From contig JAZLKG010000086.1 in NCBI GenBank assembly GCA_045597465.1, positions 2,994-66,993 on the forward strand: a DNA stretch of 64,000 bases, in the 5' to 3' direction. A model generated the notes under the pieces. That model made no database searches, was not told the DNA's origin, and saw only the letters and a program-made list of their open reading frames with translations. Shown here piece after piece: positions 25,077 to 52,158 of this stretch (position 1 is its first letter; each line of letters opens with the position of its first letter). Both the position numbers and the translations under genes were made by a program. This stretch comes from Bacteroidales bacterium. Lineage in GTDB: Bacteria > Bacteroidota > Bacteroidia > Bacteroidales > UBA3824.

Positions 25077-25245
25077 ATGAAGGTTGATTTTATTCAGGAT
25101 ACCATTGATGAGATCATAGACCAATATATGTTTGCTGACGATTCGCTCCGCCCTTGGATAATTGGATTCAGTGGAGGAAAAGACTCAACAGTAATGCTTG
25201 AATTGGTTTGGCTCGCAATAAAACAAATCAAGGAACACCACGGTC
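25077..25245 (+). pseudogene. dndC: DndC N-terminal fragment (~56 codons)
   Basis: DQY...RPWIIGFSGGKDST PP-loop; similarity stops after KEHHG and the ORF reads out of frame into dndD. Confidence 0.8.
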
Positions 25246-28796: not shown

Positions 28797-28812
28797 TCCC
28801 CTCGATTAGCCC

Positions 28813-29184
28813 ATGCCAACAATCAACTCTATCTTAACCCCGAACTCCATTCTCTCGCTGACTGATGAGGCCGGCGAGGGGTTGGAGATTTTGTATGAAC
28901 AGGTGGCCAAGGAACTAAATATGCCTGAGATCTGTTATGAGAACATTGAGCATTGCAAGGCCGTTGGGAACGGTAGTGCGGTTGCCGTTCTTATCACGTG
29001 GCAGAAATCTCAGCAAGGTGTGGTGATTGTGTTGGACGCCAAGACCGGTGCCATCAAACAATCCTACGATGGAGCTTCCGCAACCGATATAGAAATTGAG
29101 GACGATAATCTGAAGGTGACATATACCATTCACAACTTCTTTTCTGAACCTAAAGTTTTTACCTCCAATTTCCCAATTTCTTAA
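28813..29184 (+). CDS. Hypothetical protein
   Basis: 123-aa ORF starting 16 bp after dndE. Confidence 0.55.
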   Translation: MPTINSILTPNSILSLTDEAGEGLEILYEQVAKELNMPEICYENIEHCKAVGNGSAVAVLITWQKSQQGVVIVLDAKTGAIKQSYDGASATDIEIEDDNLKVTYTIHNFFSEPKVFTSNFPIS

Positions 29185-29240
29185 TCAATTCTCAAAATCT
29201 TAATACCTTAATACTTAGTATTTTATCCTCCAAAAACCCA

Positions 29241-29314
29241 ATTATTCCACGTCATTATCTGTCGAAAAATGATAGATAATGACGTGAAATAATTATTATT
29301 CCGCGTCATTATCT
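29241..29314. repeat. 74-bp direct-inverted-direct triad of ATTATTCCRCGTCATTATCT (left copy)
   Basis: Units at 29241, 29274 (inverted) and 29295. Confidence 0.9.
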
Positions 29315-29362
29315 TTAAAAAATTTATTATATTTGTGGCGTGAAACTAAATTTAGAATCGCT

Positions 29363-30784
29363 ATGGGCATTATTGTAGGACGCGAGAAGGAGCGAGAGAT
29401 TCTTGACAGATATTACAATTCCGGCAAGGCAGAGTTTGTGGCGGTGTATGGACGTCGCCGTGTGGGAAAGACGTATCTCATCAAACAGCATTTCGCCAAG
29501 CAGATCAGTTTTTATGCAACTGGAATCTTCGAGGGTTCCAAGGATGAACTTTTATCGCATTTCAACAAGCAACTCAACCTGTATTCGGGAGGAAGTTATC
29601 CGCTGGTTGACAACTGGTTCGATGCGTTTGACCAACTTAAAAACCTCATAATCAACTGCCACAAAAAGCGTGTTCTTGTATTCATCGACGAGTTGCCGTG
29701 GTTCGATTCCCATAAATCACGTTTCGTGAAAGCCCTCGAATTGTTTTGGAACAGCTGGGGAGCCGATCAGGAAAATCTGATGCTCGTGGTCTGCGGATCG
29801 GCTACCACGTGGATGACCAACAAGATAATCGGCGACAAGGGCGGACTCCACAACCGAATCACCAAGCAGATATATCTTGCGCCGTTCACTATTGCCGAGG
29901 CTGCGAAATTCCTTAGGACCAAGAAGATAGAGTTTACGGCCAAACAACTTGCCGAATATTATATGATAATGGGAGGTGTGCCGTTTTATCTGGACCAGAT
30001 AGCCAAGGGAAAGAGTCCCGAACAGAATATCAACGAGATTTTCTTTGACAGGAATTCCGACCTCAGCAAGGAATATGGCAGGCTCTACAAATCGCTTTTC
30101 GGCGAGGCGCCCACGTATCAGAAGGTGGTGGAATTGCTGGCCACAAACAGCAGCGGATACACTCAGAAAGAGATTGCACAGAAACTGAAAATCACAAATG
30201 GCGGAAACCTCAGCATTGTGCTCCAGAATCTCTGTGACTGCGATTTCGTGACAAGATATTACGCCTTCGACAAGCAGAAGCGCGACGTCTTATACAAGTT
30301 AATCGACTTCTACACACTGTTTTACCTGCATTTCATCCACGGCCAAATGCGGAATTTGGGCAGTTGGAGCAATTCGCAGGATTCGCCCGAAAAACGCACC
30401 TGGTATGGCTATGCGTTCGAGTTGCTGTGTTTCTGCCACATAGATTTCATAAAAAGCGCACTCGGAATCTCGGGCACGGTCACCAATGTAAGTTCCTGGC
30501 GTTACGATGGCGAATATGGAAAGGCTCAGATAGATTTGGTAATCGACCGCCGCGACGATACGATAAACCTCTGCGAGATAAAATTCTCCAAGAATCAGTA
30601 TATCATCACAGGCGACTACGAGGAAAAACTTGAAGAGCGGAAGGAACTTTTCAGGCTTGCGACAGGCACTCACAAGGCGCTCTATAATACATTAATCACC
30701 ATCAACGGTCTTAAGCCCGGAATTCACAACGACTGCATACAGAATCATATTGACTTATCTCTGTATATCAATGGCTTAGTATAA
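29363..30784 (+). CDS. ATPase_2-type AAA ATPase with wHTH and C-terminal PD-(D/E)XK-like domain
   Basis: IVGRE, YGRRRVGKT, FIDELPW, GGVPFYL, QIDLVIDR...CEIK. Confidence 0.88.
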   Translation: MGIIVGREKEREILDRYYNSGKAEFVAVYGRRRVGKTYLIKQHFAKQISFYATGIFEGSKDELLSHFNKQLNLYSGGSYPLVDNWFDAFDQLKNLIINCHKKRVLVFIDELPWFDSHKSRFVKALELFWNSWGADQENLMLVVCGSATTWMTNKIIGDKGGLHNRITKQIYLAPFTIAEAAKFLRTKKIEFTAKQLAEYYMIMGGVPFYLDQIAKGKSPEQNINEIFFDRNSDLSKEYGRLYKSLFGEAPTYQKVVELLATNSSGYTQKEIAQKLKITNGGNLSIVLQNLCDCDFVTRYYAFDKQKRDVLYKLIDFYTLFYLHFIHGQMRNLGSWSNSQDSPEKRTWYGYAFELLCFCHIDFIKSALGISGTVTNVSSWRYDGEYGKAQIDLVIDRRDDTINLCEIKFSKNQYIITGDYEEKLEERKELFRLATGTHKALYNTLITINGLKPGIHNDCIQNHIDLSLYINGLV

Positions 30785-30793
30785 TTTTATTCA

Positions 30794-30867
30794 ATTATTC
30801 CGCGTCATTATCTCCCAAAAAACAACAGATAATGACGTGAAATAATTATTATTCCGCGTCATTATCT
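30794..30867. repeat. 74-bp triad (right copy)
   Basis: Units at 30794, 30827 (inverted) and 30848, same order as the left copy. Confidence 0.9.
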
Positions 30868-30886
30868 GCCGAAAATTCCAATATTT

Positions 30887-32200
30887 TCACATATCCTCCA
30901 TTGACAATCCTCTTACCTCGAATTTGTATTTGCCGAATTCTGCCTTGGGGAGTTTTTCTATCTTTGAGCGCAGGTCACCGAGGCTGATTTTCTTGGGGTT
31001 GCGCTTAATTTCGGATATAAGGCCAGTGTGGTCCATCTCGTTGATGGCCACCATATCAATCTCGTTCTCGTTTTTGCGGTCCCACCAGTTGCCTATTGCT
31101 GTGTATTGGCCCGTCTCCATATACATTGCCTGAAAATACTGCTCTAATGTGATTCCGCTGAAAAGCTCATAGTTTTTCTCGATGTTTTGACGCAGAAGAG
31201 CCGTCTGCTGACGCTCTATCAGCGATTGATATGGACAGATAAACCGGAACCAGAAGCGCAGGAATGGATCTGATATGGCGTATGAGGTAGTCTTGCTGTT
31301 GGTATGGCTCAGGATTGGTTTCTTCCTTGTCACCATATAGAAGTTCTTCTCCATATTCATCAAATACACGCCCATGTCTTTCTGCATTACGCTGTCTATC
31401 TCGGTACGGCGTGTCATGCCTTGTGCTATCAGCTGAAGGATGGAGAAATACGTTGCGCTGTCGTCGCTAAACTCCTGATTCATTATGTCGCGTCCCTCGG
31501 TAAGGAAATACGAGTCGGGACGGCATACGTAGTCAAGCATTCTTTTCTTGCTGGTGCATTTGGCATCCATCAACAGTTCCACATATTTGGCCACACCACC
31601 CGTTATCATATAGAGGCAAAGCAAGTCCTCGTTCGCGTAATCGGGATTGTGGTCTTTAAGAATCTCCTTCAGAACCTCTATCGAAAAAGGCAGAAGCGTG
31701 AATTTTGAAGTTGGGCGTCCATAGAGAGGCTCGCCCTTCTCCTCGAAAATTCGTTTCATCAACGACTGTATGCTTCCTGATACTATGAGGTTTATGTGGG
31801 ATTCCCTGTGATAGCGGTCCCATATATCCTGAATCTCGCTGAAGATTGCCGGATTTATTTTATAAAGAGTCTGAAACTCGTCGAATACTATTGTGAAATG
31901 CCTCTTCTGCGATTCCCGCATTACAATCTCGAACAATTCCCCGAATTTTGTAATGTATCCATAAATGCTGATACCTAATTGCTCCGAGATTATTGACTGA
32001 AATTTTCTGCAAAGCAGCGACTCGCTGTCCTTGCTCACAAACAGGTATGCGTATTCAGAGTTGCTGAGCGCATGGGTGAGCAACGATGTTTTTCCAACAC
32101 GTCGGCGTCCCATCAATACTGTGAATGTGGCGGATGTCTGTGCCTGCAACTCATTTTGTTTCAGTATATTTATCTCATTTTCGCGGTCGTAGAATCTCAT
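30887..32200 (-). CDS. ATPase_2 + DUF234-like nuclease-domain protein
   Basis: FYDRE, GRRRVGKT, FDEFQ, DPFLRFWFRF, GNWWD...EIDMV...EIK. Confidence 0.88.
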   Translation of the reverse strand: MRFYDRENEINILKQNELQAQTSATFTVLMGRRRVGKTSLLTHALSNSEYAYLFVSKDSESLLCRKFQSIISEQLGISIYGYITKFGELFEIVMRESQKRHFTIVFDEFQTLYKINPAIFSEIQDIWDRYHRESHINLIVSGSIQSLMKRIFEEKGEPLYGRPTSKFTLLPFSIEVLKEILKDHNPDYANEDLLCLYMITGGVAKYVELLMDAKCTSKKRMLDYVCRPDSYFLTEGRDIMNQEFSDDSATYFSILQLIAQGMTRRTEIDSVMQKDMGVYLMNMEKNFYMVTRKKPILSHTNSKTTSYAISDPFLRFWFRFICPYQSLIERQQTALLRQNIEKNYELFSGITLEQYFQAMYMETGQYTAIGNWWDRKNENEIDMVAINEMDHTGLISEIKRNPKKISLGDLRSKIEKLPKAEFGKYKFEVRGLSMEDM

Positions 32201-39500: not shown

Positions 39501-39574
39501 CGGGGTGTAGCGCAGTTGGCTAGCGTACTTGCATGGGGTGCAAGTGGTCATGAGTTCGAGTCTCATCACTCCGA
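39501..39574 (+). tRNA. tRNA-Pro(GGG)
   Basis: CGGGGTG/CACTCCG acceptor stem, anticodon arm CTTGC-ATGGGGT-GCAAG, T-loop GTTCGAGT. Confidence 0.93.
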
Positions 39575-39579
39575 CATTT

Positions 39580-39605
39580 AAGCCGTCCGATGGACGGCTT
39601 TTTTT
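39580..39605 (+). terminator. Element-supplied terminator after tRNA-Pro
   Basis: aagccgtcc gat ggacggctt ttttt. Confidence 0.75.
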
Positions 39606-39789
39606 GTGCAATGTGCTGTAATAGAGTAACCTAATAAATATTTTGCCTCATCTAATAAGTAATACAAAATTTGCAAAATCATACTTGCCTAATGTAATTT
39701 TGTATCAGAAAACGGAAAGTTTTGCGGAAAGTTTTGGGAAAGGATTTCCGCTTTTCCGTTTGGTATGTTTAATGCAAAATTACAGCAGT

Positions 39790-40957
39790 ATGAAAATCTC
39801 AAACATTTTGGTAAAGTGCGACCGCAAAGACGGCAAAAACCAAATCTACATTCAGATTTCGCACAAGGGCCAGAGGAAGAAGATTCGCACCGACTTCTTC
39901 ATTCTTCCCTCTGAATGGGACGCCAAGGCTCAAAAGGTAACAAAGAAGTGTAGCGACTTCCAGAGGATTAACAATTTTCTCGCTGATCAGCGCGCGAAGT
40001 ATGAGAAAAACGAGCGTGACCTCATTCTCACAGGCGAGTATTACGACATTGCCGATATTATTGCCGACAAGTCGCCTAATGGTGATTTCGTGCAGTATTG
40101 CCGTAATGAGGTAACCAGGCGCCAGGAACTTGGCAAAATCCAATACAGCCAAGAGAATTGCTATTGGAACGTCATAGACCTTTTGGTAAAATTTGGCGGT
40201 GCCGTTATTCCATTCAAGAAGATAAATATGAAGTTCGTGAAAGACCTCCACGATTACGTTATCAGAGAAAAGGCCGATTGTTCGCCGACTACTCAGCGCA
40301 AGTATCAGAACCATCTGAGAACTTTTTTTTAATTGCGCTATGGATGACAGACTGATAGATTCTATTAATTGGCGTAGAATAGAATTGGTAAAGGCCAAAC
40401 ACAAGGAGATAGAATCCATCACAAGCGACCAACTGAGAGAGATGGAGGCCAGGCCGATAACCAATGCGCAAATCAACTATATACGTGAGTTGTTCCTGTT
40501 TGGTTGTTACACAGGATGCGCCTTTGCTGATATTATGAACCTCACGGCCGACAATATCCAATGTGATGGGGAAAGAGTTTGGTTGAAGTATCGAAGAGTT
40601 AAGAACGGAGAACTCGCCAAAGTACCTCTCCATTATAGGCATTGCTCCAAGGCTCTGCCATTGATAGAGAAACATAGCGACATCCATAGGAAAACATTGT
40701 TTCCGCCTGTTACCAACCAGAACGCCAACAAGAACCTGAAGATAATACAGGAAATCTACCAACTTACCAATGTTGAGAAGTTGGGAACACACGTTGCACG
40801 TCACACTTTTATTACTCTAATGATACAATTCGGCATAGACATCTACAATGTAAAAATCTGTGCGGGCCACGCAAGCATACAAACAACAATGAAGTATGTT
40901 TACGATGCGAGTATAGATATGGAGCGCAATCTCCGAGAGGCCGATTTTGACGAGTAA
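39790..40957 (+). pseudogene. Tyrosine integrase, frameshifted at a T8 run (40323-40330)
   Basis: N-terminal arm-binding region; CYTGCAFAD, HVARHTF, AGHASIQTTMKY; removing one T joins RTFF-NCAMDD. Confidence 0.85.
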
Positions 40958-41135
40958 TTTTTTCTTTGTAAGGCAAATTACACTTTTGATAAAAGTGTTT
41001 CAAAATGCCCTACAAATACGTGTAATCCGTTTCTGAAACGATTAAACGGAAAACTTTTGGAAATGTTTTAATCGTTTTCTATATTTGTGGCGCTAATTAT
41101 TTTATGCTTTTTATTAATATAAACCTTTATTTTCT

Positions 41136-41960
41136 ATGAAAAAAGTTTGTTTGCATTGCGGTAAGACCTTTGACGGCCGTAGCAATGCGTCATTTTGCAG
41201 TACCACCTGTAAAAACGCTTTCCACAACGGCAAGCGTTTAGGAGCGACAACAGTTTACGGCGTTCCACCTATGGGCGAGGCCGTTGGCGGAACTCAGACC
41301 CACAACGAGCCATCCGCACCAATGGGCAATCCTATGGGAGCCACGAATAGCAATCCGTTCGGAAACCTCAATCTTCTGGGCGGTGCTCAGTTCGGAAACC
41401 TCAGCGCACAACTCGGCAAGTTCGAGGAGAATGTATCTAAGCAGATAGGCGCAGTTCTCAGCCGTGTAGGAATGGTGGAGGATAAGGTTTCAAACGTGGC
41501 CTCCAAGGTGGACAACGTAACCGATGAGGTGGAGGAACTTAAAGACGTTACCAAAGACAATACCGAGGTTTTGGAGGATTTGGACGCAAAGACCGATGAG
41601 AAGTTCTCAAACCTATCCAAGGAGGTAGTATCTGGCAACGCCACACTCGATGCACGTTTCTTCAATCTCTCAAATCAGATTGAGGAAACAGCCGACAAGC
41701 ACAGCGAGGCAATTGCCGACATCTCCGGCCGTATGGTTCAGCCGGCTAATCCGGAATACGAGGAGGAACAGGACGAGGAGAGCGAGGACTTCGACGACGA
41801 GGACGAGCCAAGGCGTAAAAGAGTAAGGCTTGACTATGACGATGAGCCAGACGATGAGCCAGACGGAGACGAGGATTCCGACAATGGCGGTAGCGGTTTG
41901 GGATGGCTCATAGCATTAGGTGTTGGCGCTCTCCTTTTTGCAAGCGCAAAGAAGAAGTAA
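41136..41960 (+). CDS. Zn-finger / coiled-coil / acidic protein with C-terminal membrane anchor
   Basis: CLHCGKTF...FCSTTCK; heptad region; GLGWLIALGVGALLFASAKKK. Confidence 0.75.
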   Translation: MKKVCLHCGKTFDGRSNASFCSTTCKNAFHNGKRLGATTVYGVPPMGEAVGGTQTHNEPSAPMGNPMGATNSNPFGNLNLLGGAQFGNLSAQLGKFEENVSKQIGAVLSRVGMVEDKVSNVASKVDNVTDEVEELKDVTKDNTEVLEDLDAKTDEKFSNLSKEVVSGNATLDARFFNLSNQIEETADKHSEAIADISGRMVQPANPEYEEEQDEESEDFDDEDEPRRKRVRLDYDDEPDDEPDGDEDSDNGGSGLGWLIALGVGALLFASAKKK

Positions 41961-41980
41961 CCGCAATATGACGCACTACT

Positions 41981-42053
41981 AAAAAATGATAACTTTTTCC
42001 TTTGGTCGGCAGTCCATCAACGGCAGATCCTCAGGAAAAAGTTATCTTTTTTT
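41981..42053. terminator. Bidirectional terminator-like hairpin
   Basis: gataactttttcct...aggaaaaagttatc flanked by A and T runs. Confidence 0.6.
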
Positions 42054-42675
42054 ATAATTCAATAGTCCAAGGGACTTTTTCCCATTTTTCAAGATTGCCA
42101 TCTACGCATCTCAAAGGACTTATATCTCTTTTGTTCATATCAAGCCAAAATCTTACAAAATCTTCAATTCCTAATTGATATATACTATAATATCCAGAAT
42201 AGGATACCATAATTCGAACGTTATCATCTGTACTTAATTCGCTCATTTCCTGTATGGATAAACTATCTGATAATGACTTATATATTTGCCAAAAACAACC
42301 ATCCATATTTACAGGGGTATTGTCAAATTTTTTCTTTATGAGCAATGCTATCTCGTTTCTATCTTCATAGTTCATGCCCATCATCATATTATTGATGAAG
42401 TTATAGGCCGTATGTATTTTTTCGCTTATCTCCCTTTGGGCGAAGTCTGAAAGGAGTTTTTTCAATATCGCAGTAGTTTTATCCTGTTCCCCAAAGAAAT
42501 AGCCAACTGATACTTTGAAGTAATTAGCAATCTTATCCAAGGTTTCTAACGTGGTGCCATTATTCTTTATGGCTGAGGTTAATCCAGTTTGGGAAATCTG
42601 GATATCCTCGGCCAACTTTTTTAAAGTAATCCCTTTTTGCTTGCAAAGGTCTTTTATTAAGGCTAAATTTATCAT
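42052..42675 (-). CDS. XRE-family HTH repressor
   Basis: IKDLCKQKGITLKKLAEDIQIS...TLDKIANYFKVSV. Confidence 0.88.
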   Translation of the reverse strand: MINLALIKDLCKQKGITLKKLAEDIQISQTGLTSAIKNNGTTLETLDKIANYFKVSVGYFFGEQDKTTAILKKLLSDFAQREISEKIHTAYNFINNMMMGMNYEDRNEIALLIKKKFDNTPVNMDGCFWQIYKSLSDSLSIQEMSELSTDDNVRIMVSYSGYYSIYQLGIEDFVRFWLDMNKRDISPLRCVDGNLEKWEKVPWTIEL

Positions 42676-42809
42676 TTGTAAATATTTGAGTATTAATACA
42701 ATACAACTATTATAAAAAATAAGTACGAAAATATTTTGCGAATAATACTAAATTTTAGAACTTTACGAACGAAAATTAAGAATTATTCATTTAAATCGTA
42801 TTCAAAGTT

Positions 42810-43003
42810 ATGAATTTTTCAAACATCTACAACGGAATTTTGGATAAAAAAAGCGAGATTTTATAAGGCGCTCTATTATAGAGGCTTTTAATATCACGTA
42901 TCCAACATTCAGACGTTGGGCAATTGGTGTTACAATTCCACCCAAACGTTACCACGACGCAATTGCGAACATTATGGGAGTTCCTGTTACAGAACTCTTT
43001 TAG
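42810..43003 (+). pseudogene. Cro-like HTH protein frameshifted at an A7 run (42846-42852); not in ORF track
   Basis: MNFSNIYNGILDKK + RDFIRRSIIEAFNITYPTFRRWAIGVTIPPKRYHDAIANIMGVPVTELF; divergent from the repressor. Confidence 0.65.
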
Positions 43004-43027
43004 TATTAACCATTAACACACAACACA

Positions 43028-43267
43028 ATGAAAAAAGCATTACAGAAACGTCTGCAAGCAGTGGCAGACAAGTTGAGCGAGTTGCAGTCAGAACTCACTC
43101 TCATACAGGAGGAGGCACAGGACTATTTCGATAGTCGCTCCGAGAATTGGCAAGAATCCGAAAAGGGCGAAACCGCACAGGAGGAGATCGAGCGAATTGA
43201 GGAGTTTGCCGACGAGGTAGAAACCATCAGCACCGATATTGAGGACTTCATCAATGAGGCCGAGTAA
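43028..43267 (+). CDS. Small acidic coiled-coil protein (phage-like)
   Basis: 79 aa; YFDSRSENWQESEKG. Confidence 0.7.
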   Translation: MKKALQKRLQAVADKLSELQSELTLIQEEAQDYFDSRSENWQESEKGETAQEEIERIEEFADEVETISTDIEDFINEAE

Positions 43268-43298
43268 CATAGTATTAACCCTATAAAGCAGTATTAAA

Positions 43299-43667
43299 AT
43301 GGAAAAAGAAAACGTAAATCCAGAAGTACAGGCCAAGTGCGACAAAGGTCACGCCTATCTCAACGGAGAGTTGGATGCAGTAGAATCTACTACACTCACT
43401 AAGTCAATCCGCAATCTCAGCGTAGAATGTTACGAGTCAGTTATGACAGACGGCTCTGTTAATGAGTGCGGTATCGAACTGAACATTTGCGACAGGGAAG
43501 GTCGCTCCCGTGGCTCAATACTCCTCACACCAAAGGAGGCCAACAGGGTAGCGAAGTGGATGCACGAATGGGCGTGGGATTTGGCTTACAAGCACGCCGA
43601 ATGGCTGGAGAACGAGGAGAAGCTTATGGCTGAACTCCGCAACAAGGACACCAAGAAATCTGAGTAA
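43299..43667 (+). CDS. Hypothetical protein
   Basis: 122-aa ORF in the element's rightward operon. Confidence 0.65.
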   Translation: MEKENVNPEVQAKCDKGHAYLNGELDAVESTTLTKSIRNLSVECYESVMTDGSVNECGIELNICDREGRSRGSILLTPKEANRVAKWMHEWAWDLAYKHAEWLENEEKLMAELRNKDTKKSE

Positions 43668-43729
43668 CAAACAAAAGGGCGATGCGCCTACCCACGAAGT
43701 ACCGCACCGCCCATCAAAAAACAAATGAT

Positions 43730-45064
43730 ATGATTTTCGACACCGCAAATTTAATAAAAAAAATTGCAAATAAGGAATATACAATCCACGAATTTGCAAA
43801 AGAATGGGGAGCGACCATCATTGTACTTTGGGTACTGAAATTCGCCACATCTGGTGTAAGCGTCACGGCGGGCTACAATTTTATGTACAACGTGTTCTTT
43901 ACTCTGATAGAATCCGCTACGTGGTCTATCACATTCACAATCCTGTTTCTGGGATTGATAGAGTTGCTTAATATGTATTTCCTTTCCAAGGCTTTCAAGT
44001 TTGGATTTCACGGCAAGTTTATAGCCTGTGGCGTTCTTGTGATGGTCGCTTTGGGAACATTCGGATTAAGCAGTTATATCTCAATCCAAGGCCTCAGACA
44101 ATTCACCTCCACCAAGGTTGACAACACCGAGAACATAGTAAACAACTATTCGGTATTGCTTGAGAATCTGGAAACAGAGCATAATGGAATCGTGGCAGAC
44201 TTCAAGGCCGAGATTATCACCATCAAGAACAATCCCGAGGGATGGCAGAACGGCAAGAGGGCGGTTCTCACATCGGAGCAACAAGCCAATATCCGCAACA
44301 TCAACGCAAGTATAGCCAAGGAGAACGATAGATATTTCACCGAGCGCACCGCATTGATGGAGGCCAAGGAGAGGGAACTCACCAACAATAAGACCGTGGC
44401 CACCGACACGTCCGATGAGTATATGTGGTATGTAGGCGTGATAATGTTTCTTCAACTCGCCTGTAATGGTGGACTAATGTTTTTCTACTCCAGAATCTAT
44501 AATGAGAATGAGCGTGAAAAGGTTATCACCGATGCGGTAACAGATATCCGTGATAGTGTGCTGAGCCGAGCCGTCAACTCTATAATCGAGGCTCTCAACA
44601 ATGTTGGCTCACGATTGGTGGGAGGTTTCGGCCTCGCCAAGGAATACCAATTCGCAGACCTGCAGGCTCAGCCGATTTTGAACACCGAGACGACCGCCAC
44701 GGCCACGATACCGCCAACAGCCACGACCACGTCAGCCACACGGCCACGGACTTCTCCACCATTGCAGACACCACAAAAACCGATAGGTTTTGCAGTAGGC
44801 GACACGGACACGTCCACACCCACGGCACACGGCCATTACGGGCCCGTAGTGGAGGGGAACACGGACACCCAAGAACACGGCCAAACCGCCGTGTCCGAAC
44901 ACAGCCGACAGGTTGTTAAGGTGTGCAAGTTCTGCAACAAGGAGTTCACTCCCAAGGCGTGGAATCAAGTGTTTTGTTGTCCAGAACACAAGGATAAGTA
45001 TTGGAACAACAACGGCCTTGATATAGAGAAAATCAAGTTGAAGAACAAGAAAAAATCGAAATAA
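43730..45064 (+). CDS. Multi-TM coiled-coil protein with C-terminal Zn-finger
   Basis: ~3 N-terminal TM helices, coiled coil, 4th TM helix, Thr/Pro linker, CKFCNKEF...FCCPEHK. Confidence 0.75.
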   Translation: MIFDTANLIKKIANKEYTIHEFAKEWGATIIVLWVLKFATSGVSVTAGYNFMYNVFFTLIESATWSITFTILFLGLIELLNMYFLSKAFKFGFHGKFIACGVLVMVALGTFGLSSYISIQGLRQFTSTKVDNTENIVNNYSVLLENLETEHNGIVADFKAEIITIKNNPEGWQNGKRAVLTSEQQANIRNINASIAKENDRYFTERTALMEAKERELTNNKTVATDTSDEYMWYVGVIMFLQLACNGGLMFFYSRIYNENEREKVITDAVTDIRDSVLSRAVNSIIEALNNVGSRLVGGFGLAKEYQFADLQAQPILNTETTATATIPPTATTTSATRPRTSPPLQTPQKPIGFAVGDTDTSTPTAHGHYGPVVEGNTDTQEHGQTAVSEHSRQVVKVCKFCNKEFTPKAWNQVFCCPEHKDKYWNNNGLDIEKIKLKNKKKSK

Positions 45065-45065
45065 G

Positions 45066-45287
45066 ATGGAGATACAATTAACTACACGATACAACATTGG
45101 AGATACCCTTATCTGGAAAACTCCAAACGGAAATCACAAGTGTACTGTCGTCGGCATTAAGGCTTCCGCCAACATCACAAGAGAGGCATACACCGAGGTA
45201 TCATATATTATCGAAGTCGGAGGGAATTATCCGACGGCCAAGGAGAAAGACCTCTACTCTGATACAACAGGATGGCCGATACAATAA
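45066..45287 (+). CDS. Small hypothetical protein
   Basis: Starts right after the previous stop; TRYNIGD phage-like start. Confidence 0.55.
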   Translation: MEIQLTTRYNIGDTLIWKTPNGNHKCTVVGIKASANITREAYTEVSYIIEVGGNYPTAKEKDLYSDTTGWPIQ

Positions 45288-45368
45288 GCAATGTAACCCT
45301 AACTATTATAACCCAAGGTTGCCGAAGTCTTACAGGATGGAGGCAACCTTTTCAAAAGAAAAAAGATT

Positions 45369-45542
45369 ATGTCAGAACTTGAAATTAAGACCTACGAAAA
45401 GGTTGTTGAGTTGGAGCGAGAGATATGCGACCACTCCATTAAATCGTGCAATTTCGATAGGATTAAAAAATCCTGTCAGAAGTTGATCAAACTGATCAAT
45501 CTTTACCAAGCACTATGCGAGGAAGAGGATTTAGCAGTGTAA
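45369..45542 (+). CDS. Small hypothetical protein (57 aa, below ORF-track cut-off)
   Basis: MSELEIKTYEKVVELEREIC... after an A-rich leader. Confidence 0.4.
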   Translation: MSELEIKTYEKVVELEREICDHSIKSCNFDRIKKSCQKLIKLINLYQALCEEEDLAV

Positions 45543-45752
45543 GGCTCATAGACCACAAGAACGGACTTATGGCCACAGGAGAGAAACCTCGTAACTCCAT
45601 CGCACGGAATTGGGCGAAAATCCAAGCGAGGATATTAAGATTAAGGAAATTTGCTATTGTAGTGGAGGGTAACGGCATTTACATAAAGGAATGCTATAAA
45701 CTTGACGAAAACGGCAATTTCATACAACTATCATTTAAATTCGTAAGACTTT

Positions 45753-46109
45753 ATGAACGAAATTTTACAGAAGATGGCAGTGGCACAGATGGAGTTCTGG
45801 TCAGCCGTAGAGAAAGTAAGTTCCAAGGATGCACCAATCTCCGAGGAACAATACCAGGCCGAAAGACGCAAGCGCATTTTGGCAGAACTCAGAGAGCGTA
45901 TTCAATGCAAGAGAATCAGCCTTGACATTGTGGCTGAATGGTCCGGAAAGAGCGTTGATTATTGCCGTGAAAAGGTGATACACCGAGGCGGTAACAACAA
46001 CTTAGAGAGCCGATGGGCGGTTGACGTGGTAGTCTTCCTGTGCGACCTGTGGCAGATCTCCGTGCCAAGTTGGTGCAGTGAGGTGAGAGATAAGTTTGGA
46101 ATCCAATAA
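45753..46109 (+). CDS. Hypothetical protein, possible HTH
   Basis: 118 aa; ISLDIVAEWSGKSVDY pattern. Confidence 0.5.
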   Translation: MNEILQKMAVAQMEFWSAVEKVSSKDAPISEEQYQAERRKRILAELRERIQCKRISLDIVAEWSGKSVDYCREKVIHRGGNNNLESRWAVDVVVFLCDLWQISVPSWCSEVRDKFGIQ

Positions 46110-46255
46110 AAAAGCCGTCAACTTCGGCATAAGTCAACGGCATTTTAGGGAATGGAGTATGTTTGCTACAACATTTAAGCAGTATGGCGCAAATGTACTC
46201 CATATTTCCGAAACTGCCAAAGTATCAATAAAAAATAATTAATAAATTCTATAAT

Positions 46256-48022
46256 ATGGAGGTAAAACCCACGAAACAGGACTTTATAAAGTCGGTAGAA
46301 AATACCAAGGGTAAAAAGAATGCCCAAGAAATCAAAACCGATGAGATAATCATATCCAAGGACGGAATTTTCGTCAGACGATACAACAAGAAAGGAGAGG
46401 AGCAAACTCCTCAGAAAGTTTGTAAAAAGCCTATTTATTTTAAGTATATACTTAAATCTAAGGATAGCGAGGAAACCGAGAGGCTTATGCAGATTGGCAG
46501 TACCGACAATCCCCTATATATGACCATCAAGAACTCAGAACTATGCTCTGCGGTAAAGTTCAAGGAGAAGTTGTTGAATGAGCAGATTACTCTCCGTTTC
46601 AATACTTATACTCTGGAAAGTTTCTTAGACGCAACGCCAGTTTTACCATCAGCCATTAAGATAGATACATTGGGATATAACGCTGAGACTGACGCTTACT
46701 ATTTCTCTAATGCCGTGGCCCAAGGTGAGAAGATTTACGAGCCTAACGAGTTCGGCATTGCCGAGATAGATGGCAAGTGCGTTTTTATGCCTTATACTGA
46801 TTGTCAGAACGCCACCAAAGAGGAAACTGAACAATCCAAGCGCTTTATATATACTCCCTGTAATATCACATTCAAGGAGTGGTTTTCTATGATGCATAGA
46901 TGCTATGGTGATACTGCCGTCATATCAGCCGTATATACCATAGCATCTATGTTTAGAGATATTATCTACAATAATTGCCGATTCTACCCTATGTTGTATT
47001 TCAAAGGTTCTGGAAGTAACGGCAAATCTACTCTCATAAGTTTGCTTACACGTCTGTTTGGTGAGCCTCAGAGTGAGGTAAACTTCAATAATGCCAATAC
47101 TATGAACGGATTGGAGCGTTTTATGAGTGGAGCCAGGAATACTATTATTGCCATCAACGAGTTCCCATCAGATAATGACGAGATACGTGACAAGTTTATG
47201 GCCCTGTATGATGGAGGAGGCTCTCTCAAGGCTCAGTTCTCCAATGACAAGAAAACACATTCCATAACAACAGAGGCAGGTGTTGTGATAACAAGTAACT
47301 TCACGCCTACACACATTCCTTTGTTTCAGAGATTTGTATATGTTGAGTTGCCTAAACTGACCGATAAGCAGATAGAGGAGGCCAGCGACATTATAAACAT
47401 CGATCTGTCGAAAAACTTCTCTGCTATATCAGTTGAGATTATGAAACATCGTGCGCTGATAGAGAAAGAATTTTCCAATACCTATTCAGCGGTTAAGCAT
47501 TATTTCCGTGACCAATTCAAGGGACAGGATATTGAGCCACGATACACCGACAACAGAGCTGCGATTCTTACTCCAATTCTTATTCTTACTACCAACAAGT
47601 TGATTGATTTCGGAATGGATGATGATAGTATTACTAATGTATTATTGGAAAATCTCAAGAATCAGATTGAGATAGGCAAACTTAATGATAGTGTCAGCGA
47701 GTTCTGGATAGCCATCCAACACCTATTGCGCAACTACAAAATCAAGATGGGATATGACGTTAAATTTATGAATGACAAAGGTAGTATATCTGTAAACATA
47801 AACAACTGTTACTTGCCATATACCCAAGAACTCAGAGGCAAAGCCAAAGACAAAGGCTATCTGGTTGACTTGTTACGCAATTCCAAGGCTTTTATTGATA
47901 GCAAGCCTGTAAAATTCACAGACCCTACAAAGGGGAAAAAGACTTCTACAACAGGTTTAGTATTTGATTATCAGAGATTAAAGGATGATTTTGGAGTAGA
48001 TTTTGAAAATTTTGCAGTCTGA
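46256..48022 (+). CDS. Primase-associated P-loop helicase/ATPase (DUF927/SF3-like)
   Basis: YPMLYFKGSGSNGKST Walker A, IAINEF Walker B, VITSN. Confidence 0.7.
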   Translation: MEVKPTKQDFIKSVENTKGKKNAQEIKTDEIIISKDGIFVRRYNKKGEEQTPQKVCKKPIYFKYILKSKDSEETERLMQIGSTDNPLYMTIKNSELCSAVKFKEKLLNEQITLRFNTYTLESFLDATPVLPSAIKIDTLGYNAETDAYYFSNAVAQGEKIYEPNEFGIAEIDGKCVFMPYTDCQNATKEETEQSKRFIYTPCNITFKEWFSMMHRCYGDTAVISAVYTIASMFRDIIYNNCRFYPMLYFKGSGSNGKSTLISLLTRLFGEPQSEVNFNNANTMNGLERFMSGARNTIIAINEFPSDNDEIRDKFMALYDGGGSLKAQFSNDKKTHSITTEAGVVITSNFTPTHIPLFQRFVYVELPKLTDKQIEEASDIINIDLSKNFSAISVEIMKHRALIEKEFSNTYSAVKHYFRDQFKGQDIEPRYTDNRAAILTPILILTTNKLIDFGMDDDSITNVLLENLKNQIEIGKLNDSVSEFWIAIQHLLRNYKIKMGYDVKFMNDKGSISVNINNCYLPYTQELRGKAKDKGYLVDLLRNSKAFIDSKPVKFTDPTKGKKTSTTGLVFDYQRLKDDFGVDFENFAV

Positions 48023-48034
48023 AACAAATATTTT

Positions 48035-48227
48035 TTGCAACCGAATAGTAAAAATATGTATTAATTATTTATATATCAATTATTTATAAGGTTGCAAAAT
48101 GGTTGCAAAATGGTTGCAAAGTGGTTGCAAAGTTGCTATTGCAACCAAATCAACCAACTTCAACCGCCTAAAATGACCTTAACCGCCTGAAACACTGCAA
48201 TTTATAAGAGCGGTTGCAAAGTTGCAG
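48035..48227. repeat. Iteron array, putative replication origin
   Basis: GGTTGCAAA at 48090, 48101, 48112, 48123 (11-bp period) and 48212; inverted TTGCAACC at 48035 and 48139; AT-rich 48045-48089. Confidence 0.75.
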
Positions 48228-48262
48228 AAAAAATGAGGGTATAACCATAAAAAATAAAAAAA

Positions 48263-49186
48263 ATGAGTTATCTATATCATTTACAGAAACATAAGCCAAA
48301 AATTAAGTGTCCGAATTGTGGTAGAAACCGCTGTTTCGTTCCTTATGTTGATGCAAACGAGGCGGTTGTTGACGCTGAAAAATACGGCCGATGCGAGCGT
48401 ATAAATAGTTGTGGATATAATGAGTATCCCAAAGGTATTAAGAATGAGAATCAGGATTATAAGCCGAAACCTCCCAAGCCACCCAAGCCACCTGTTTATT
48501 ATTCTATGGAGTTGGTAAGACAATGTTTCAAGCCATATAATAATCAATTGGTTCAATTCCTTATGAGAGCCACGGAAAACAATATGATGGACGAGATAAA
48601 CAAGGCCGTCACGGATTACAGGATAGGCTCAGACAAAAACGGAGGCGTGATATTTTGGCAGATAGACCAATATAACAACGTTCACAGAGGCAAGATAATG
48701 TATTATGGTGCAGACGGCCACAGGCTTAAAGATATTGATGGAAACGGCATTGTTACCTATGTTAGATGCAAACTAAATCGTAGTTCCGATATTGAGCCAG
48801 ATATGTGCTACTTCGGATTGCATCTACTTCCGACATATCCAGACAAGACAATATGCATTGTTGAGAGCGAGAAAACGGCCTTAATTGGAGCCGTAATCTT
48901 TCCTCAGTACCTTTGGATAGCAACAGGTAGTATATCTACATTTAATCCAAAATGGTGCGAGCCATTGAAATATAGAAAATGCCAAGTGTTTCCAGATAAT
49001 GACGGATTCGACAAGTGGGTAAAGAAAACTTCAGACATTCGATTTGCCCTATCTGAAACCGATGCACAAGGGAATGAAGTATTCACTATGGATATTGCCG
49101 TAAATCCATTCATCAAAGAATACGGAAAAGAAAGTGAAGATGTAGCCGACATATTTTTGAAATATAGATTTGATATAGATAATTGA
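48263..49186 (+). CDS. Zn-ribbon + TOPRIM-like primase (DUF6371-like)
   Basis: CPNCG...GRCERINSCGY; IFWQID; IVESEKTA; FPDND. Confidence 0.75.
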   Translation: MSYLYHLQKHKPKIKCPNCGRNRCFVPYVDANEAVVDAEKYGRCERINSCGYNEYPKGIKNENQDYKPKPPKPPKPPVYYSMELVRQCFKPYNNQLVQFLMRATENNMMDEINKAVTDYRIGSDKNGGVIFWQIDQYNNVHRGKIMYYGADGHRLKDIDGNGIVTYVRCKLNRSSDIEPDMCYFGLHLLPTYPDKTICIVESEKTALIGAVIFPQYLWIATGSISTFNPKWCEPLKYRKCQVFPDNDGFDKWVKKTSDIRFALSETDAQGNEVFTMDIAVNPFIKEYGKESEDVADIFLKYRFDIDN

Positions 49187-49547
49187 TTATAGGATTATTA
49201 CAGGATTGTATAAAAAATCTCTCAATAAGATTTCTGATATTGTCCGATAAGCAGTAATATTGCAAAAAGGATTGGGAAAGTACACGGAAAGTATTTTCTT
49301 AAAACTTACGCAACTTACTGAAATAGAGCGAAATAAAACAAAGGACGTATTTTTCATCACTCCGACATAGTAAATTTCAGATAATACCCACTATTTTGCA
49401 AGTGATTGCAATTTAGTGGGTTATCTGTTTTTATACCCTATATCTTTGCAGTGCCTTTTTTCGATTTTTACGTATATTCAGGATAATTTTGCCACAAAAT
49501 GTGAAACAAAATGTTGCGCAAATGTTTCGCAAGGATGCGTTTTTCCC

Positions 49548-51641
49548 CTATTCCAATTCCCTGATTCCGATACCCTTCAGATATTCGTATGTGCTGTTGT
49601 AGAATTCAGGTAGTCTGGTTGGGTCGTCGGGATTGCCTTCCGGCACACAGATTACCATGCCCTGGCGGGCTCTCGTTAGGAGCACCCGGTAGGCGTTGAG
49701 CTGATAGCTTTGCAATTCCGGTTTGTTGATATTCTGCCATTTGGAACCCTTGAAGGAGAAATGTTTCCAGCCTTTGTCGGAATATTGGAAATCGCCATCC
49801 CAGGCAAGACTAGTCCAATCCAGCTCCAACCCTTGTATATCAAACTCAGTAGCAACATCTTCCAGAAACAACGACGAGCGCACGTCGGTTTTATCGGTCA
49901 GAAACCAATGCTCGGTATCAGGCTGAAATCTTACATCTATCGAAAGGGGACGCAATCTGTAGGCTTGAGAGGATACAACGATTCCGTATCTTTCGCTTCC
50001 TCGGGCTTGTGATATCAACCATTCTTTTGCCTTGTCGAGGTCTCGGGTCAATACCAATTTGAATTTATCACAGAAGCCTTTGTATAATGTACTTGCTTTT
50101 TCTTTTTCCCTATCCAAAAGCGCATGCACAAAAGCGGAAAGAGTTTCCGCCCTAAATGAACGCATGGACACCGCCAGATGAAGATTGTCTTCCAAGATGG
50201 CGTTGGGATTGTGCTGCAATAGCTCGGTCACATTTCCCTCTGCGTATTCCTTTTCCTTCAATTGTGACGATATATATACTTTCCAATCGGGGAAAGTCTC
50301 ATTCATTGCCCGTATCCATTCCTTGATTCCGGCTTCTCCTGCGTTGATTTCCTGTCCGCCTCCTACCAGGCAAATTATTACAGCCCAGTCTTTCCTCTGG
50401 TCCAGTGACCAAATCAGGAATTCGGCCTCCGACATCGGGAAATCGGCTATTTTCTTTTTGCCGCCTCGGCTTCCGCCTTGTGCAAGCCATGACGATAGGT
50501 GTTTTAAATCCCATGAGCGCTGGGCCTCGTCGAATATGGCTACATGTTCCACCTCGGCATGACCGGAATCTCCATATTCCTCCGATTTCGTTTTGTCGAT
50601 TTCCAATTTGCCATTGGTAATTGGCAGTTTTATTTTGGCCAGCATGTTGTCTCTGTATCTGTGGATTATCTGTATGAATTGAGATACTTCGCGCTTGGCA
50701 TCACTGAGATTGTATTTTTTGCCTTTCTTCTTTTCCCTTTCCTGCTTGTCTTTGGCCAACGCTGCGGTAAGTACCTTTACCAGCGGACCGTTGCCAGATA
50801 GATAGACTGCCAGATTCCGTTTGCCACTTTCATCCAGCATCGATTGTTGTATGGCAACATTTAATCCCACCAGAGTTTTTCCGGCGCCTGGCACTCCTGT
50901 TACAAAACAGATGCTTTTTTCGCCACGTTCCTTGCTCTGCTTTATTACATCAAGCACATATTTAGTTGTTTTCTCCAATGATGCCCCCTCTGCCTCACTC
51001 TTGGTGATGTCCTCTACAGAATGATTGCTGTACAAGGCACTGGCGGCTTCTATAATTGTGGGTGTGGGTGCGTATCGTCCATTGGCCCAGGCTGATAGCT
51101 CGTATTTGTAAGATGATGGAGGTTGGGCATGTTGCAGCACCATACCGATGGTTTTGTTTATTGATGCCGAATTTATCAGTAGCGGATTATATATCTGGTC
51201 GTTATATACCGACAGCTTTACTTGTTTGGATACTTTTGATGCTTCTGTCGCCACAAGAATTGGAACTATGATTCTGTCATGACTTGGCAGATGAAAATTC
51301 TTTAAGTCAAGGGCGTAATCCATTACTTGGTCGATGTCCTGTTGTGTATATTCGTCTTTGCCTGCCTTGAATTCCAATACGAAAACTATGTCTCTCAACA
51401 AAAGAACCACATCAATTCTTTTTCCAAGTCGGGGAATTGAATACTCGAATACTATTTCGGCTTTCTCGTTTTTGTAATCTGACAGTTCTTCCTTCAATGA
51501 TTCTATCTCCTCGTCCCAGGCTTTTTTCTGATCTTTCACTGTATCGCCTTCGTCGTTGCGGGAGATTATTCCAAAGATTGTGTCTGTATCTTGAGTTAGG
51601 AATGTTGCTAACGTTTCCTTGTAGAAATATCTATTGATCAT
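49548..51641 (-). CDS. DUF2075 (Schlafen group 3-like) helicase with N-terminal PD-(D/E)XK-like nuclease
   Basis: RIDVVL...VLEFK; TGVPGAGKT; IFDEAQR; IQGLELD; NAYRVLLTRARQG. Confidence 0.85.
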   Translation of the reverse strand: MINRYFYKETLATFLTQDTDTIFGIISRNDEGDTVKDQKKAWDEEIESLKEELSDYKNEKAEIVFEYSIPRLGKRIDVVLLLRDIVFVLEFKAGKDEYTQQDIDQVMDYALDLKNFHLPSHDRIIVPILVATEASKVSKQVKLSVYNDQIYNPLLINSASINKTIGMVLQHAQPPSSYKYELSAWANGRYAPTPTIIEAASALYSNHSVEDITKSEAEGASLEKTTKYVLDVIKQSKERGEKSICFVTGVPGAGKTLVGLNVAIQQSMLDESGKRNLAVYLSGNGPLVKVLTAALAKDKQEREKKKGKKYNLSDAKREVSQFIQIIHRYRDNMLAKIKLPITNGKLEIDKTKSEEYGDSGHAEVEHVAIFDEAQRSWDLKHLSSWLAQGGSRGGKKKIADFPMSEAEFLIWSLDQRKDWAVIICLVGGGQEINAGEAGIKEWIRAMNETFPDWKVYISSQLKEKEYAEGNVTELLQHNPNAILEDNLHLAVSMRSFRAETLSAFVHALLDREKEKASTLYKGFCDKFKLVLTRDLDKAKEWLISQARGSERYGIVVSSQAYRLRPLSIDVRFQPDTEHWFLTDKTDVRSSLFLEDVATEFDIQGLELDWTSLAWDGDFQYSDKGWKHFSFKGSKWQNINKPELQSYQLNAYRVLLTRARQGMVICVPEGNPDDPTRLPEFYNSTYEYLKGIGIRELE

Positions 51642-51657
51642 ATCACACCCCTCCCTT

Positions 51658-52158
51658 TTACCCATTGATACGATTGAGAACTATAGGGCCGTTTTCGCCG
51701 GCGTAGGGGAGGGAGCCTATGGTGTTGTAGTCGATGAACTCAACGGCCTCGTCGTAGTCCATGCCGTCTTCCTCTATCAGCGATTCCACCATAAGGTCGT
51801 AGTCGTAGATCACACGGCCGTTGGTGTCCACGCCTATCACTGCTGATGCGTAGTCGGGATTCTCGAATACCACAGCCTCCTCGTAGCCCATGTCGCAGAG
51901 GCTTTGCTTCAGCGATTCCAATGTAAGGGGCTGGTTTGTGCCGATATTCTCGGCTGTTTTCAGCAGGGAGCTGACCTCCATTCCAAGACACTCGGCCAGT
52001 CGTAAGAGAATGTCGATCGAGATATTCCTTTTGCCGTTTTCGATATCGCTCATGTAGCGGCGGTCTATGTCGGCGGCCAGGGCCAGCTGCTCCTGCGAGA
52101 GGCCGCGATGCTTGCGTATTTCTATAAGTGCCTGACCTAATTTGGATTGCAATGTCAT
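51658..52158 (-). CDS. XRE HTH protein with additional C-terminal domain
   Basis: GLSQEQLALAADIDRRYMSDIENGKRNISI; C-terminal AVIGVD...IYDY...EAVEFIDYN. Confidence 0.85.
   Translation of the reverse strand: MTLQSKLGQALIEIRKHRGLSQEQLALAADIDRRYMSDIENGKRNISIDILLRLAECLGMEVSSLLKTAENIGTNQPLTLESLKQSLCDMGYEEAVVFENPDYASAVIGVDTNGRVIYDYDLMVESLIEEDGMDYDEAVEFIDYNTIGSLPYAGENGPIVLNRING

Follow-up and report, generated by a model that had tools for sequence, protein, structure and literature searches.

Organization of the element at tRNA-Pro

A 64,000-nt stretch of contig JAZLKG010000086.1 (assembly GCA_045597465.1) of a gut Bacteroidales bacterium, hereafter called the window, carries an integrated element at a tRNA-Pro gene; all coordinates are positions in this window (Table 1). 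The element lies between two exact copies of a 15-bp core, TCATCACTCCGACAT, which at the left end (attL) comprises the last 13 bases of the tRNA and two more. The window contains exactly two copies of TCATCACTCCGACAT, and still two if one mismatch is allowed; two matches with at most one mismatch were obtained in 0 of 100 dinucleotide-preserving shuffles (mean 0.02). The unit between the repeats is 9.8 kb long, 82% of it is occupied by listed genes, and its GC content is about 0.32–0.50 against about 0.47–0.55 in the left flank. An earlier note on this DNA, made from the letters alone, had described an exact 15-bp att duplication around a 9.8-kb element, and this was borne out.

The integrase gene adjoins the left core and is followed by a gene for a zinc-finger protein, a repressor gene on the opposite strand and a small cro-like helix-turn-helix (HTH) gene that faces it. 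From here an operon reads rightward through a swappable cargo slot into a helicase gene, an iteron origin and a gene for a DnaG-type primase. We define this order as the family int-(ZnF)-repressor/cro-cargo-helicase-primase. As in phage-inducible chromosomal islands (PICIs), the integrase gene stands beside an att site in a unit that has direct repeats and falls within ~8–18 kb, a divergent master repressor (HTH_3, minus strand) faces an operon (cro-like gene, rightward) leading into replication genes, and the replicon has its own primase/helicase and an iteron origin. The layout agrees with that of PICIs in five points (integrase, divergent master repressor, rightward operon, helicase/primase with an iteron origin next to it, and ~10 kb in size); packaging and interference genes were not found. 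There is about an even chance that the element is an integrative, self-replicating island of the phage-satellite type, similar to PICIs or to virion-encapsidated integrative mobile elements (VEIMEs) and dependent on a helper phage. By analogy, it would be satellite-like in integration, control and replication, and its exit from the cell is a proposal. Judging from gene content and order, it is one member of a family recurring in this Bacteroidales genus.

Table 1. Features of the element and of its borders, in window positions
Feature	Position	Strand	Basis
tRNA-Pro (anticodon GGG), integration target	39501..39575	+	ARAGORN
attL core, first copy of the 15-bp direct repeat; overlaps the 3' end of the tRNA	39563..39577	+	Sequence; shuffle test
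T1, hairpin GCCGTC..GACGGC with T-run; terminator for the rebuilt tRNA, probably element-borne	39581..39606	+	Sequence
Tyrosine integrase, frameshifted	39790..40957	+	Pfam Arm-DNA-bind_5, Phage_int_SAM_5, Phage_integrase
274-aa protein: N-terminal CxxC..FCSxxC zinc finger, coiled coil, acidic stretch, C-terminal transmembrane anchor	41136..41960	+	Translation
CI-type HTH_3 repressor, 207 aa	42052..42675	-	Pfam HTH_3, E 1.9e-9; phrog_8
cro-like small HTH gene, frameshifted, facing the repressor	42810..43003	+	tblastn versus G020
79-aa coiled-coil protein (p79), phrog_4068 (function unknown)	43028..43267	+	PHROGs, E 4e-10
122-aa protein (p122), cargo slot	43299..43667	+	No family in Pfam, PHROGs, NCBIfam, PADLOC
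444-aa membrane protein with hydrophobic helices, a long coiled coil, a disordered linker and a CxxC..FCC zinc finger at the C-terminus	43730..45064	+	Translation; alignment
73-aa open reading frame (p73)	45066..45287	+	Translation; replaced in X2 relative
Variable stretch including a 118-aa open reading frame (p118, 45753-46109)	45288..46255	+	Indels in X1 and X2 relatives
DUF927/P4-alpha-type P-loop replicative helicase, 588 aa	46256..48022	+	Pfam DUF927, E 6e-15
Origin-like region, six GGTTGCAAA iterons around an AT-rich stretch	48034..48220		Repeat count; shuffles
Zn_ribbon_16 + DUF6371 protein, 307 aa; DnaG/T7-gp4-type (Toprim) primase by fold	48263..49186	+	Pfam; AlphaFold2; Foldseek
attR core, second 15-bp copy	49354..49368	+	Sequence; shuffle test
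T2, left-arm remnant of a G020-type element, outside this element: hairpin terminator, then 11-12-bp arm-like repeats	49369..49535	+	Identity to G020

The integrase reported earlier is present by its domains, but one T too many, within the T8 run at 40323–40330, divides the gene between two reading frames; in tblastn, the intact 406-aa integrase of a sibling element (genome G020, described below) matched both frames. Two relatives found in public sequencing runs, X1 and X4, have one base fewer at 40324, which restores the frame. No peptidase domain, S24 included, was found in the repressor by the Pfam scan, and across its first 84 residues it is 70% identical to the G020 repressor. Likewise, PICI repressors of the Stl type are not known to have an S24 peptidase domain. 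A cro-like gene does face the repressor, as had been proposed, but it is also frameshifted (an A7 run at 42846–42852 versus A8 in G020) and for this reason is absent from the list of open reading frames (ORFs). Read across the two frames, its product has 75% identity to the G020 cro-like protein (tblastn). Since the integrase and cro genes each have a 1-nt homopolymer indel, this copy is either defective or misassembled, and the island is probably stuck in it unless the indels are assembly errors. Frame switches at homopolymers, counted roughly across the genome, amounted to 62 rows, which would fit assembly error as well as real decay.

Related elements in the genus

A DNA search of 40 relatives revealed a related element at the same tRNA-Pro in G020, a genome of the same genus. 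From the core it reads through the integrase (406 aa), a zinc-finger protein with an acidic tail (200 aa), an opposite-strand repressor and a cro-like gene into a 113-aa protein with two transmembrane (TM) segments, an Amidase_2 protein (PHROG category 'lysis', E 4e-18), a 264-aa protein with one TM segment, a 91-aa N-terminally anchored coiled-coil protein weakly matching Rz spanin, a 121-aa homologue of p118, a VapE helicase and a Toprim primase, and then reaches the core again, which agrees with that of the window in 13 of 15 bases. The cro-like family, searched with an alignment of five proteins, was present in 18 of the 401 sampled genomes of the order and in 10 of the 25 genomes of the genus; the genome studied here is included in both sets, and without it the latter count is 9 of 24.

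Five siblings were examined closely (genomes G007, G018, G020, G023 and G024; among the loci L009, L035, L064, L076 and L077, the last is that of G018). According to tblastn maps, all five have int, repressor/cro, helicase and primase in the same order as here, the last two being of the VapE and Toprim_2 types versus DUF927 and DUF6371 in the window. The G024 element, of ~7.7 kb and with a 14-bp repeat, comprises int, repressor/cro, three cargo ORFs, a p118-like ORF, VapE and primase; it has no zinc-finger gene. Both it and the G020 element lie at tRNA-Pro(GGG) with 13–14-bp repeats. The G023 and G007 elements (6.4 and 9.0 kb, respectively) are located beside mnmE, and each contains a zinc-finger gene and a PIN-domain gene; G007 also encodes TM proteins of 261 and 93 aa as in G020 and a weak HTH_17, excisionase-like ORF. 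At tRNA-Pro(CGG) of G018 (locus L077, contig G018:C92) there is a second decayed copy in the genus, with the integrase and cro each split in two and the primase truncated. An element arm and an integrase fragment are all that is left after tRNA-Pro in a further genome, G013.

The four better-preserved siblings, a group that leaves aside the decayed G018 copy, span 6.4–9.4 kb. A relaxase query gave no match in the siblings, three of which (L009, L035 and L064) were tested directly. The search for syntenic elements in Bacteroidales genomes that had been suggested in the earlier note thus yielded five relatives, and their maps indicate that compact size is the rule, each locus being flanked by host genes and not belonging to larger prophages or ICEs (integrative and conjugative elements). 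The stretch from cro to the helicase gene reads as a swappable cargo slot, holding a lysis cassette, a PIN toxin or membrane proteins. In addition, an 8-Mb genome of the order, G050, contains eight copies of the cro-like marker (L037, L054, L057, L059–L063), the contexts of which share little else with the window element.

Public sequencing runs were available as contigs (Logan), and stretches without cover were given no weight. Six runs of two gut-metagenome studies contain parts of the element, the best one a 0.33 share of its words. The X1 relative, with ~5% differences, is represented by one contig that extends from 39553, inside the tRNA, via T1 and the integrase gene to 42279, and by a 10,364-bp contig that covers 42254–49366 and continues with ~3.4 kb unlike the window. 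By this comparison, it is the same element with another right flank, and its contiguous core, T1 and int on the left next to a different sequence on the right support mobility. Replacements in X1 and X2 at 43304–43662 and 45065–45752 fall on cargo positions.

Replication module

Besides DUF927, the helicase matched phrog_22657, phrog_1139 ('DNA primase') and, below the cut-off, NCBIfam primase_Cterm; its distant phage homologues carry primase/helicase annotation. Six copies of GGTTGCAAA were counted, all of them in the origin-like region between the helicase and primase genes; the expected number for the whole window is 0.84, and six copies were reached in 0 of 100 shuffles. Four iterons form a tandem array with a spacing of 11 bp, and another lies inverted across the AT-rich stretch. 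Short tandem repeats are also present in the helicase-primase gap of the G020 sibling.

The product of the last gene of the element, a DUF6371 protein, was modelled with AlphaFold2 from a 38-row homologue alignment (mean predicted local distance difference test score, pLDDT, of 91). A Foldseek search of this model against PDB gave 27 matches at E ≤ 1e-3, and all of those shown were DnaG or T7 gp4 primases or primase-helicases. The best (E 2e-5) were 1nui, a T7 gp4 primase fragment, and 1eqn; catalytic cores of bacterial DnaG proteins, that of E. coli among them, stood at the top of the matches. Among the 883 homologues found at E ≤ 1e-10, 120 were listed, and in 3 of these 120 the DnaG finger CHC2 (PF01807) takes the place of Zn_ribbon_16. 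A classical CHC2 + Toprim_2 primase holds the DUF6371 position in the siblings. A shallow profile-profile comparison (hhalign) of four DUF6371 proteins with four Toprim primases was not significant, and PDB sequence searches with the primase and helicase returned nothing useful. On the basis of the predicted fold, the DUF6371 protein is assigned to the DnaG/T7-type primases. The helicase, iterons and primase-like gene listed in the earlier note were thereby confirmed. A second DUF6371 primase, 44% identical, was found in the same genome (G000) on the 4.3-kb contig C114 together with ORFs of 523 and 274 aa; this contig is probably another small element.

Genes for packaging and conjugation

Ten ORFs of the element were sent to each of Pfam, PHROGs and NCBIfam, with no match to any family of capsid, portal, terminase, tail or relaxase proteins. 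The same libraries revealed none of the genes used by satellites for packaging or helper interference (terS, ppi, cpm and the capsid genes of capsid-forming PICIs). The relaxase (PF03432) of MT836643.1, a Bacteroidales integrative and mobilizable element (IME), gave a best E of 1.2 in tblastn against the element. These results agree with the earlier note, in which neither capsid, terminase nor relaxase had been recognised. The small ORFs p122, p73 and p118 and the stretch 45288–46255 leave room in which a novel packaging or interference factor may be encoded.

Membrane and zinc-finger proteins

Two proteins combining TM segments with CxxC..FC fingers had been noted among the largest genes of the element, and both were found as described. 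The 274-aa protein, encoded next to the integrase, has a single hydrophobic segment at residues 251–272. Weak matches of coiled-coil type were the only ones obtained in Pfam and PADLOC, a precomputed annotation names PF28217, two homologues were found among 5.8 billion proteins, and the ESM Atlas gave no usable match. Its zinc-finger N-terminus is common to the integrase-adjacent proteins of G020 and G007 (tblastn) and, by motif, is also present in proteins of G023 and G018; in the Tn4555-like record MT836643.1 the same finger motif is followed by two HTH_17 domains. No TM segment was found in the sibling versions in 3 of 3 cases checked (G020, G023 and G007). The integrase-adjacent zinc-finger protein thus appears to be a semi-conserved backbone gene with a membrane anchor only in this copy, and is probably a DNA-binding helper of recombination or regulation. 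TnpA of Tn4555, encoded upstream of the integrase, presumably has a zinc finger. Deletion of tnpA led to near-random insertion, as described in PMC5704250.

The 444-aa protein belongs to the cargo. Its homologues begin at the second methionine. Six relatives were found among 5.8 billion 90%-clusters, and matches were present in 5 of the 401 genomes of the order, this one included. A 14-member profile recovered 652 representatives at E ≤ 1e-3 (189 at 1e-30) in 1.84 billion, and the few that bear names are called 'hypothetical protein'. Common to members of the family are a long coiled coil and, at the N-terminus, a membrane domain of helices; the C-terminus is a CxxC..FC finger in 8 of the 14 aligned members and another small domain in 6. 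The AlphaFold2 model (pLDDT 68) is helical with a disordered linker, and a fold search against PDB gave nothing at E ≤ 1e-3. Seven matches at E ≤ 1e-3, none with an assigned function, were obtained in BFVD: four uncharacterised proteins of uncultured phages, three of them Caudovirales, and three nameless entries. The nearest ESM Atlas clusters were 56–62% viral, or from Bacteroidota.

In other Bacteroidales metagenome-assembled genomes (MAGs), homologues of the 444-aa protein are located after a repressor/cro pair. An integrase gene lies ~4–5 kb upstream at two of these loci (L018 and L019), and a third (L020) is flanked by integrase and primase-helicase genes. In G329 the neighbours of the homologue are a gene for a tail fibre (phrog_5668, E 1.6e-28) and a weak match to a tape-measure protein. 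No homologue was found in any of the five siblings. Neither the 444-aa nor the 274-aa protein gave a tblastn match in phage records, a JGI metagenome scan with the 444-aa protein detected no relatives, and a scan of genome contigs for its family recovered only previously known loci. The 444-aa protein is cargo from a phage-associated family placed in the swappable slot, and it probably serves to exclude incoming phage or to interfere with it, or else to anchor replication at the membrane. Since three sibling zinc-finger proteins have no TM segment and none of the five siblings has a 444-aa homologue, the membrane features appear to be particular to the accessory genes of this copy and not a property of the family.

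The phage phi29 protein p16.7 is a membrane-anchored DNA-binding organiser of phage replication. The zinc-finger membrane proteins resemble it by description, as a membrane anchor and a coiled coil are combined in both with an end that binds nucleic acid (predicted here), and it may be a functional analogue; the fold search with the 444-aa model mentioned above gave no match.

The remaining cargo is small. No PDB sequence match was found for p122, and its region is replaced by a different sequence in the X2 relative. Upstream of the helicase gene, p118 is conserved in siblings, as the 121-aa ORF of G020 (31%, E 3e-11) and an ORF of G024.

A region of G329 (contig C50, ~15–37 kb, loci L032/L021) contains tail-fibre and tape-measure-like genes, an anti-restriction/ATPase polyvalent protein and a repressor/cro/membrane-protein/VapE module. 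None of its scanned ORFs was recognised as a capsid gene, and the region is a possible helper-type prophage for such elements.

Integration site and its flanks

The hairpin T1 that follows attL is similar to the one that natively comes after the tRNA in other genomes of the genus. In 10 of 24 of them the DNA match to tRNA-Pro extends through T1 to window position 39604–39611, and in the two of these 10 that were read directly (G006 and G009) no element follows the T1-like hairpin. In the X1 relative (95%-like) T1 is contiguous with int, and the G024 and G018 siblings have a hairpin with a T-run of their own immediately 3' of the core.

On the right, window positions 49354–49499, that is, the core and the first 131 bp of T2, are 99% identical to the stretch from attL to the integrase in G020; for comparison, the tRNA regions of this species and G020 are 85–88% identical. 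The 11–12-bp repeats past the T2 hairpin resemble arm repeats of G020 and G013, and the latter genome has a T2 copy at 70% identity with its integrase remnant. In G020 the order of the hairpins is reversed, T2 following attL and a T1-like hairpin following attR, while in G024 a second, host-type hairpin is found 3' of attR.

In our reading, each element of the family would carry in a terminator for the rebuilt tRNA; the element studied here would have brought T1 and inserted next to an older element of the G020 type, on its tRNA side, and that older element is now reduced to its left arm. An off-core insertion that left attB and attP intact is less likely. It would agree with the host-like hairpin after attL and with the sequence after attR being similar to the arm of another element, but the G024 and G018 siblings have their own hairpin directly past the core and the X1 relative has a different right flank.

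Directly to the right of the tRNA-Pro hotspot, window positions 49548–52158 contain a minus-strand gene for a Schlafen group-3 helicase of 705 aa (PF09848, E 3e-71) and, beside it, an ORF of 166 aa. Copies of this helicase region with 68% identity are present in G004 and G007, and the two genes may be a defence-type pair in the same hotspot. To the left, the window region 25208–32200, with large co-directional ORFs (671, 527, 123 and 483 aa) followed by an ATPase-like ORF of 437 aa on the opposite strand, resembles a defence or restriction island.

Nature of the element

If the element is a helper-dependent satellite, its repressor would hold the island silent until repression is relieved by a signal, for which a protein from a helper phage, infecting or induced, is the likeliest candidate. 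The integrase would then cut out a circle at the core, the helicase would load on the iterons and, with the primase, multiply the circle, and the copies would exit the cell in particles or by lysis not fully encoded by the island. Links to phages are provided by p79 (phrog_4068), by the lysis cassette of G020, in which Amidase_2 is flanked by TM proteins, and by the viral clusters, BFVD matches and tail-fibre neighbour of the 444-aa family.

PICIs, e.g. those of Staphylococcus aureus (SaPIs), are similar in size (~10 kb), in the integrase at the att end, the divergent master repressor and the rightward operon, in having no capsid or tail genes, and in an own helicase/primase with an iteron origin beside the helicase gene. 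They differ in carrying terS, ppi, cpm or other packaging and interference genes, none of which was recognised here; the order helicase-origin-primase and the Bacteroidota host are also different, the proteins are unrelated by sequence save for generic integrase and HTH domains, and for the element here a helper and induction are predictions.

The marine VEIMEs and tycheposons are likewise small, with an integrase, a primase/helicase, many unknown genes and diverse swappable cargo, and are often capsid-less. The difference is that VEIMEs are defined by presence in virions or vesicles (PMC9618062), while the present element is known from genes and compared by description. More than 80% of VEIMEs have integrases, their size varies from <5 kb to 16.8 kb, and they are encapsidated yet have no major capsid genes, according to the same source. 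Since satellites without capsid genes thus exist, the premise of the earlier note that satellites normally carry packaging genes was too strict. Further satellite families listed in PMC11389934 are phage-inducible chromosomal minimalist islands (PICMIs), VEIMEs and tycheposons, and hitchers may lack genes homologous to those of the helper.

Several observations weigh against a helper-dependent satellite. Neither a small terminase, a capsid-remodelling or other packaging gene nor a cos or pac site was recognised, and no helper phage was identified. The proteins of the element have no homologues elsewhere in the genome, except for the second DUF6371 primase on C114; the 444-aa protein, helicase and primase have no close relative in IMG/VR viral contigs; and megablast of the element against 50,697 phage records gave no match. 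No joint of an excised circle (attP) or an empty site (attB) was seen, which has little weight as contigs only were available. DUF6371 primases are typical of Bacteroidales mobilizable transposons moved by conjugation, lysis cassettes such as that of G020 are unusual for satellites, and the integrase and cro genes of this copy are broken.

A broader view, which we put forward tentatively and consider doubtful, is that the family represents an undescribed Bacteroidales class of capsid-less and relaxase-less replicative islands with a middle slot for modules of 'exit or defence' that can replace each other: a lysis cassette of holin-amidase-spanin-like type in some members and membrane proteins with predicted DNA-binding zinc fingers in the window element. 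The circles would leave by self-triggered lysis, in vesicles, or in hijacked helper particles via factors unlike known satellite genes. Good descriptions exist of phage satellites and further helper-dependent islands from Proteobacteria and Firmicutes. In our literature search, judged partly by titles and the openings of abstracts, no account of phage satellites or of such elements in Bacteroidales was found. Of the undescribed class of integrative replicon suggested earlier, the part that concerns a compact replicon without recognisable capsid, terminase and relaxase genes stood, and the membrane-tether part was not supported.

It is rather unlikely that the element is an IME moved by conjugation without an own relaxase, in which case a conjugative transposon of the same cell would supply the relaxase that nicks, in trans, an oriT as yet unrecognised, and the helicase-primase pair would only maintain the excised circle. 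NBU elements target tRNA 3' ends. The integrase type and tRNA targeting are similar here, and NBU1, NBU2 and Tn4555 have in common with the window element a Bacteroidota-type tyrosine integrase, a size of 10–12 kb and the pairing of a P-loop ATPase with a primase-like gene (DUF6371). Both an Arm-DNA-bind_5/SAM_5 integrase and a DUF6371 gene, as expected of Bacteroidales IMEs, were found here, while a Mob relaxase was not. DUF6371 is given in Table 4 of PMC13183296 as part of the Tn4555 gene block and would be a hallmark of such IMEs, and IMEs that have no relaxase and borrow that of a helper are listed in Table 2 of PMC5704250. Relaxase PF03432, DUF3987, DUF6371, an integrase and, beside int, a zinc-finger protein are all encoded in MT836643.1. 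This record (L024), deposited as 'UNVERIFIED Bacteriophage sp.' from human faeces, is a Tn4555-like mobilizable element and no phage; L022 and L023 are similar GenBank records with DUF6371. In contrast, the NBU/Tn4555 elements have an own MobA/VirD2-type relaxase with oriT, an ATPase with DUF3987 instead of DUF927 and an int-xis-prm-mob layout without a CI/cro switch, whereas the regulation here is phage-like, no relaxase was found in the element or in the three siblings tested, and the sibling cargo includes an endolysin-type amidase.

A decaying remnant, i.e. what was once the early region of a temperate phage or of an element, immobile and passively carried, with the 15-bp repeat as a scar, is an improbable explanation. 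It would account for the frameshifts in both the integrase and cro, for the remnant of another element directly to the right (49369–49535), for the location of a 444-aa homologue in a region with tail genes, and for the decayed relatives in G013 and G018. However, siblings with intact genes (G020 and G024) have the same compact size and are bounded by repeats and host genes, and therefore the compact form is the functional unit and not a leftover. Moreover, the integrase frame is intact and the right flank is a different one in near-identical relatives elsewhere, the remaining genes of this copy are open, and both indels are in homopolymers and may be assembly errors.

Least probable, and in our opinion very unlikely, is the new kind of replicon suggested in the earlier note, whose excised circle would be tied to the membrane by the zinc-finger membrane proteins for segregation or export, e.g. 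in vesicles: two proteins do join TM segments with a treble-clef-like finger, the finger or other small domain at the C-terminus of the 444-aa family could be an exchangeable cargo-binding end, membrane-anchored organisers of phage DNA replication such as p16.7 exist, and VEIME-like concatemers occur also in the vesicle fraction (PMC9618062), but DNA binding by the fingers is a prediction, no partition or export ATPase is encoded in the element, G024 has no zinc-finger gene, and since the membrane features are not conserved in the family, the idea is unsupported.

The marks of a temperate tailed prophage were not found, as none of the ten ORFs sent to the libraries matched a structural family; the att-bounded unit has 9.8 kb. 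A microvirus-type or other small provirus was rejected, as a capsid gene is missing and an integrase is present.

Implications for gut Bacteroidales

With the fold-based assignment, DUF6371 would gain a function, that of a primase, and this would apply also to the resistance-carrying Tn4555-type transposons, in which the family is found as well. Bacteroidales are a dominant gut order, and a compact family recurring in one of its genera, equipped with a switch, an origin and a cargo slot for lysis genes, PIN toxins or membrane proteins, may offer a tractable way into how such islands move and how they affect phage infection in gut Bacteroidales.

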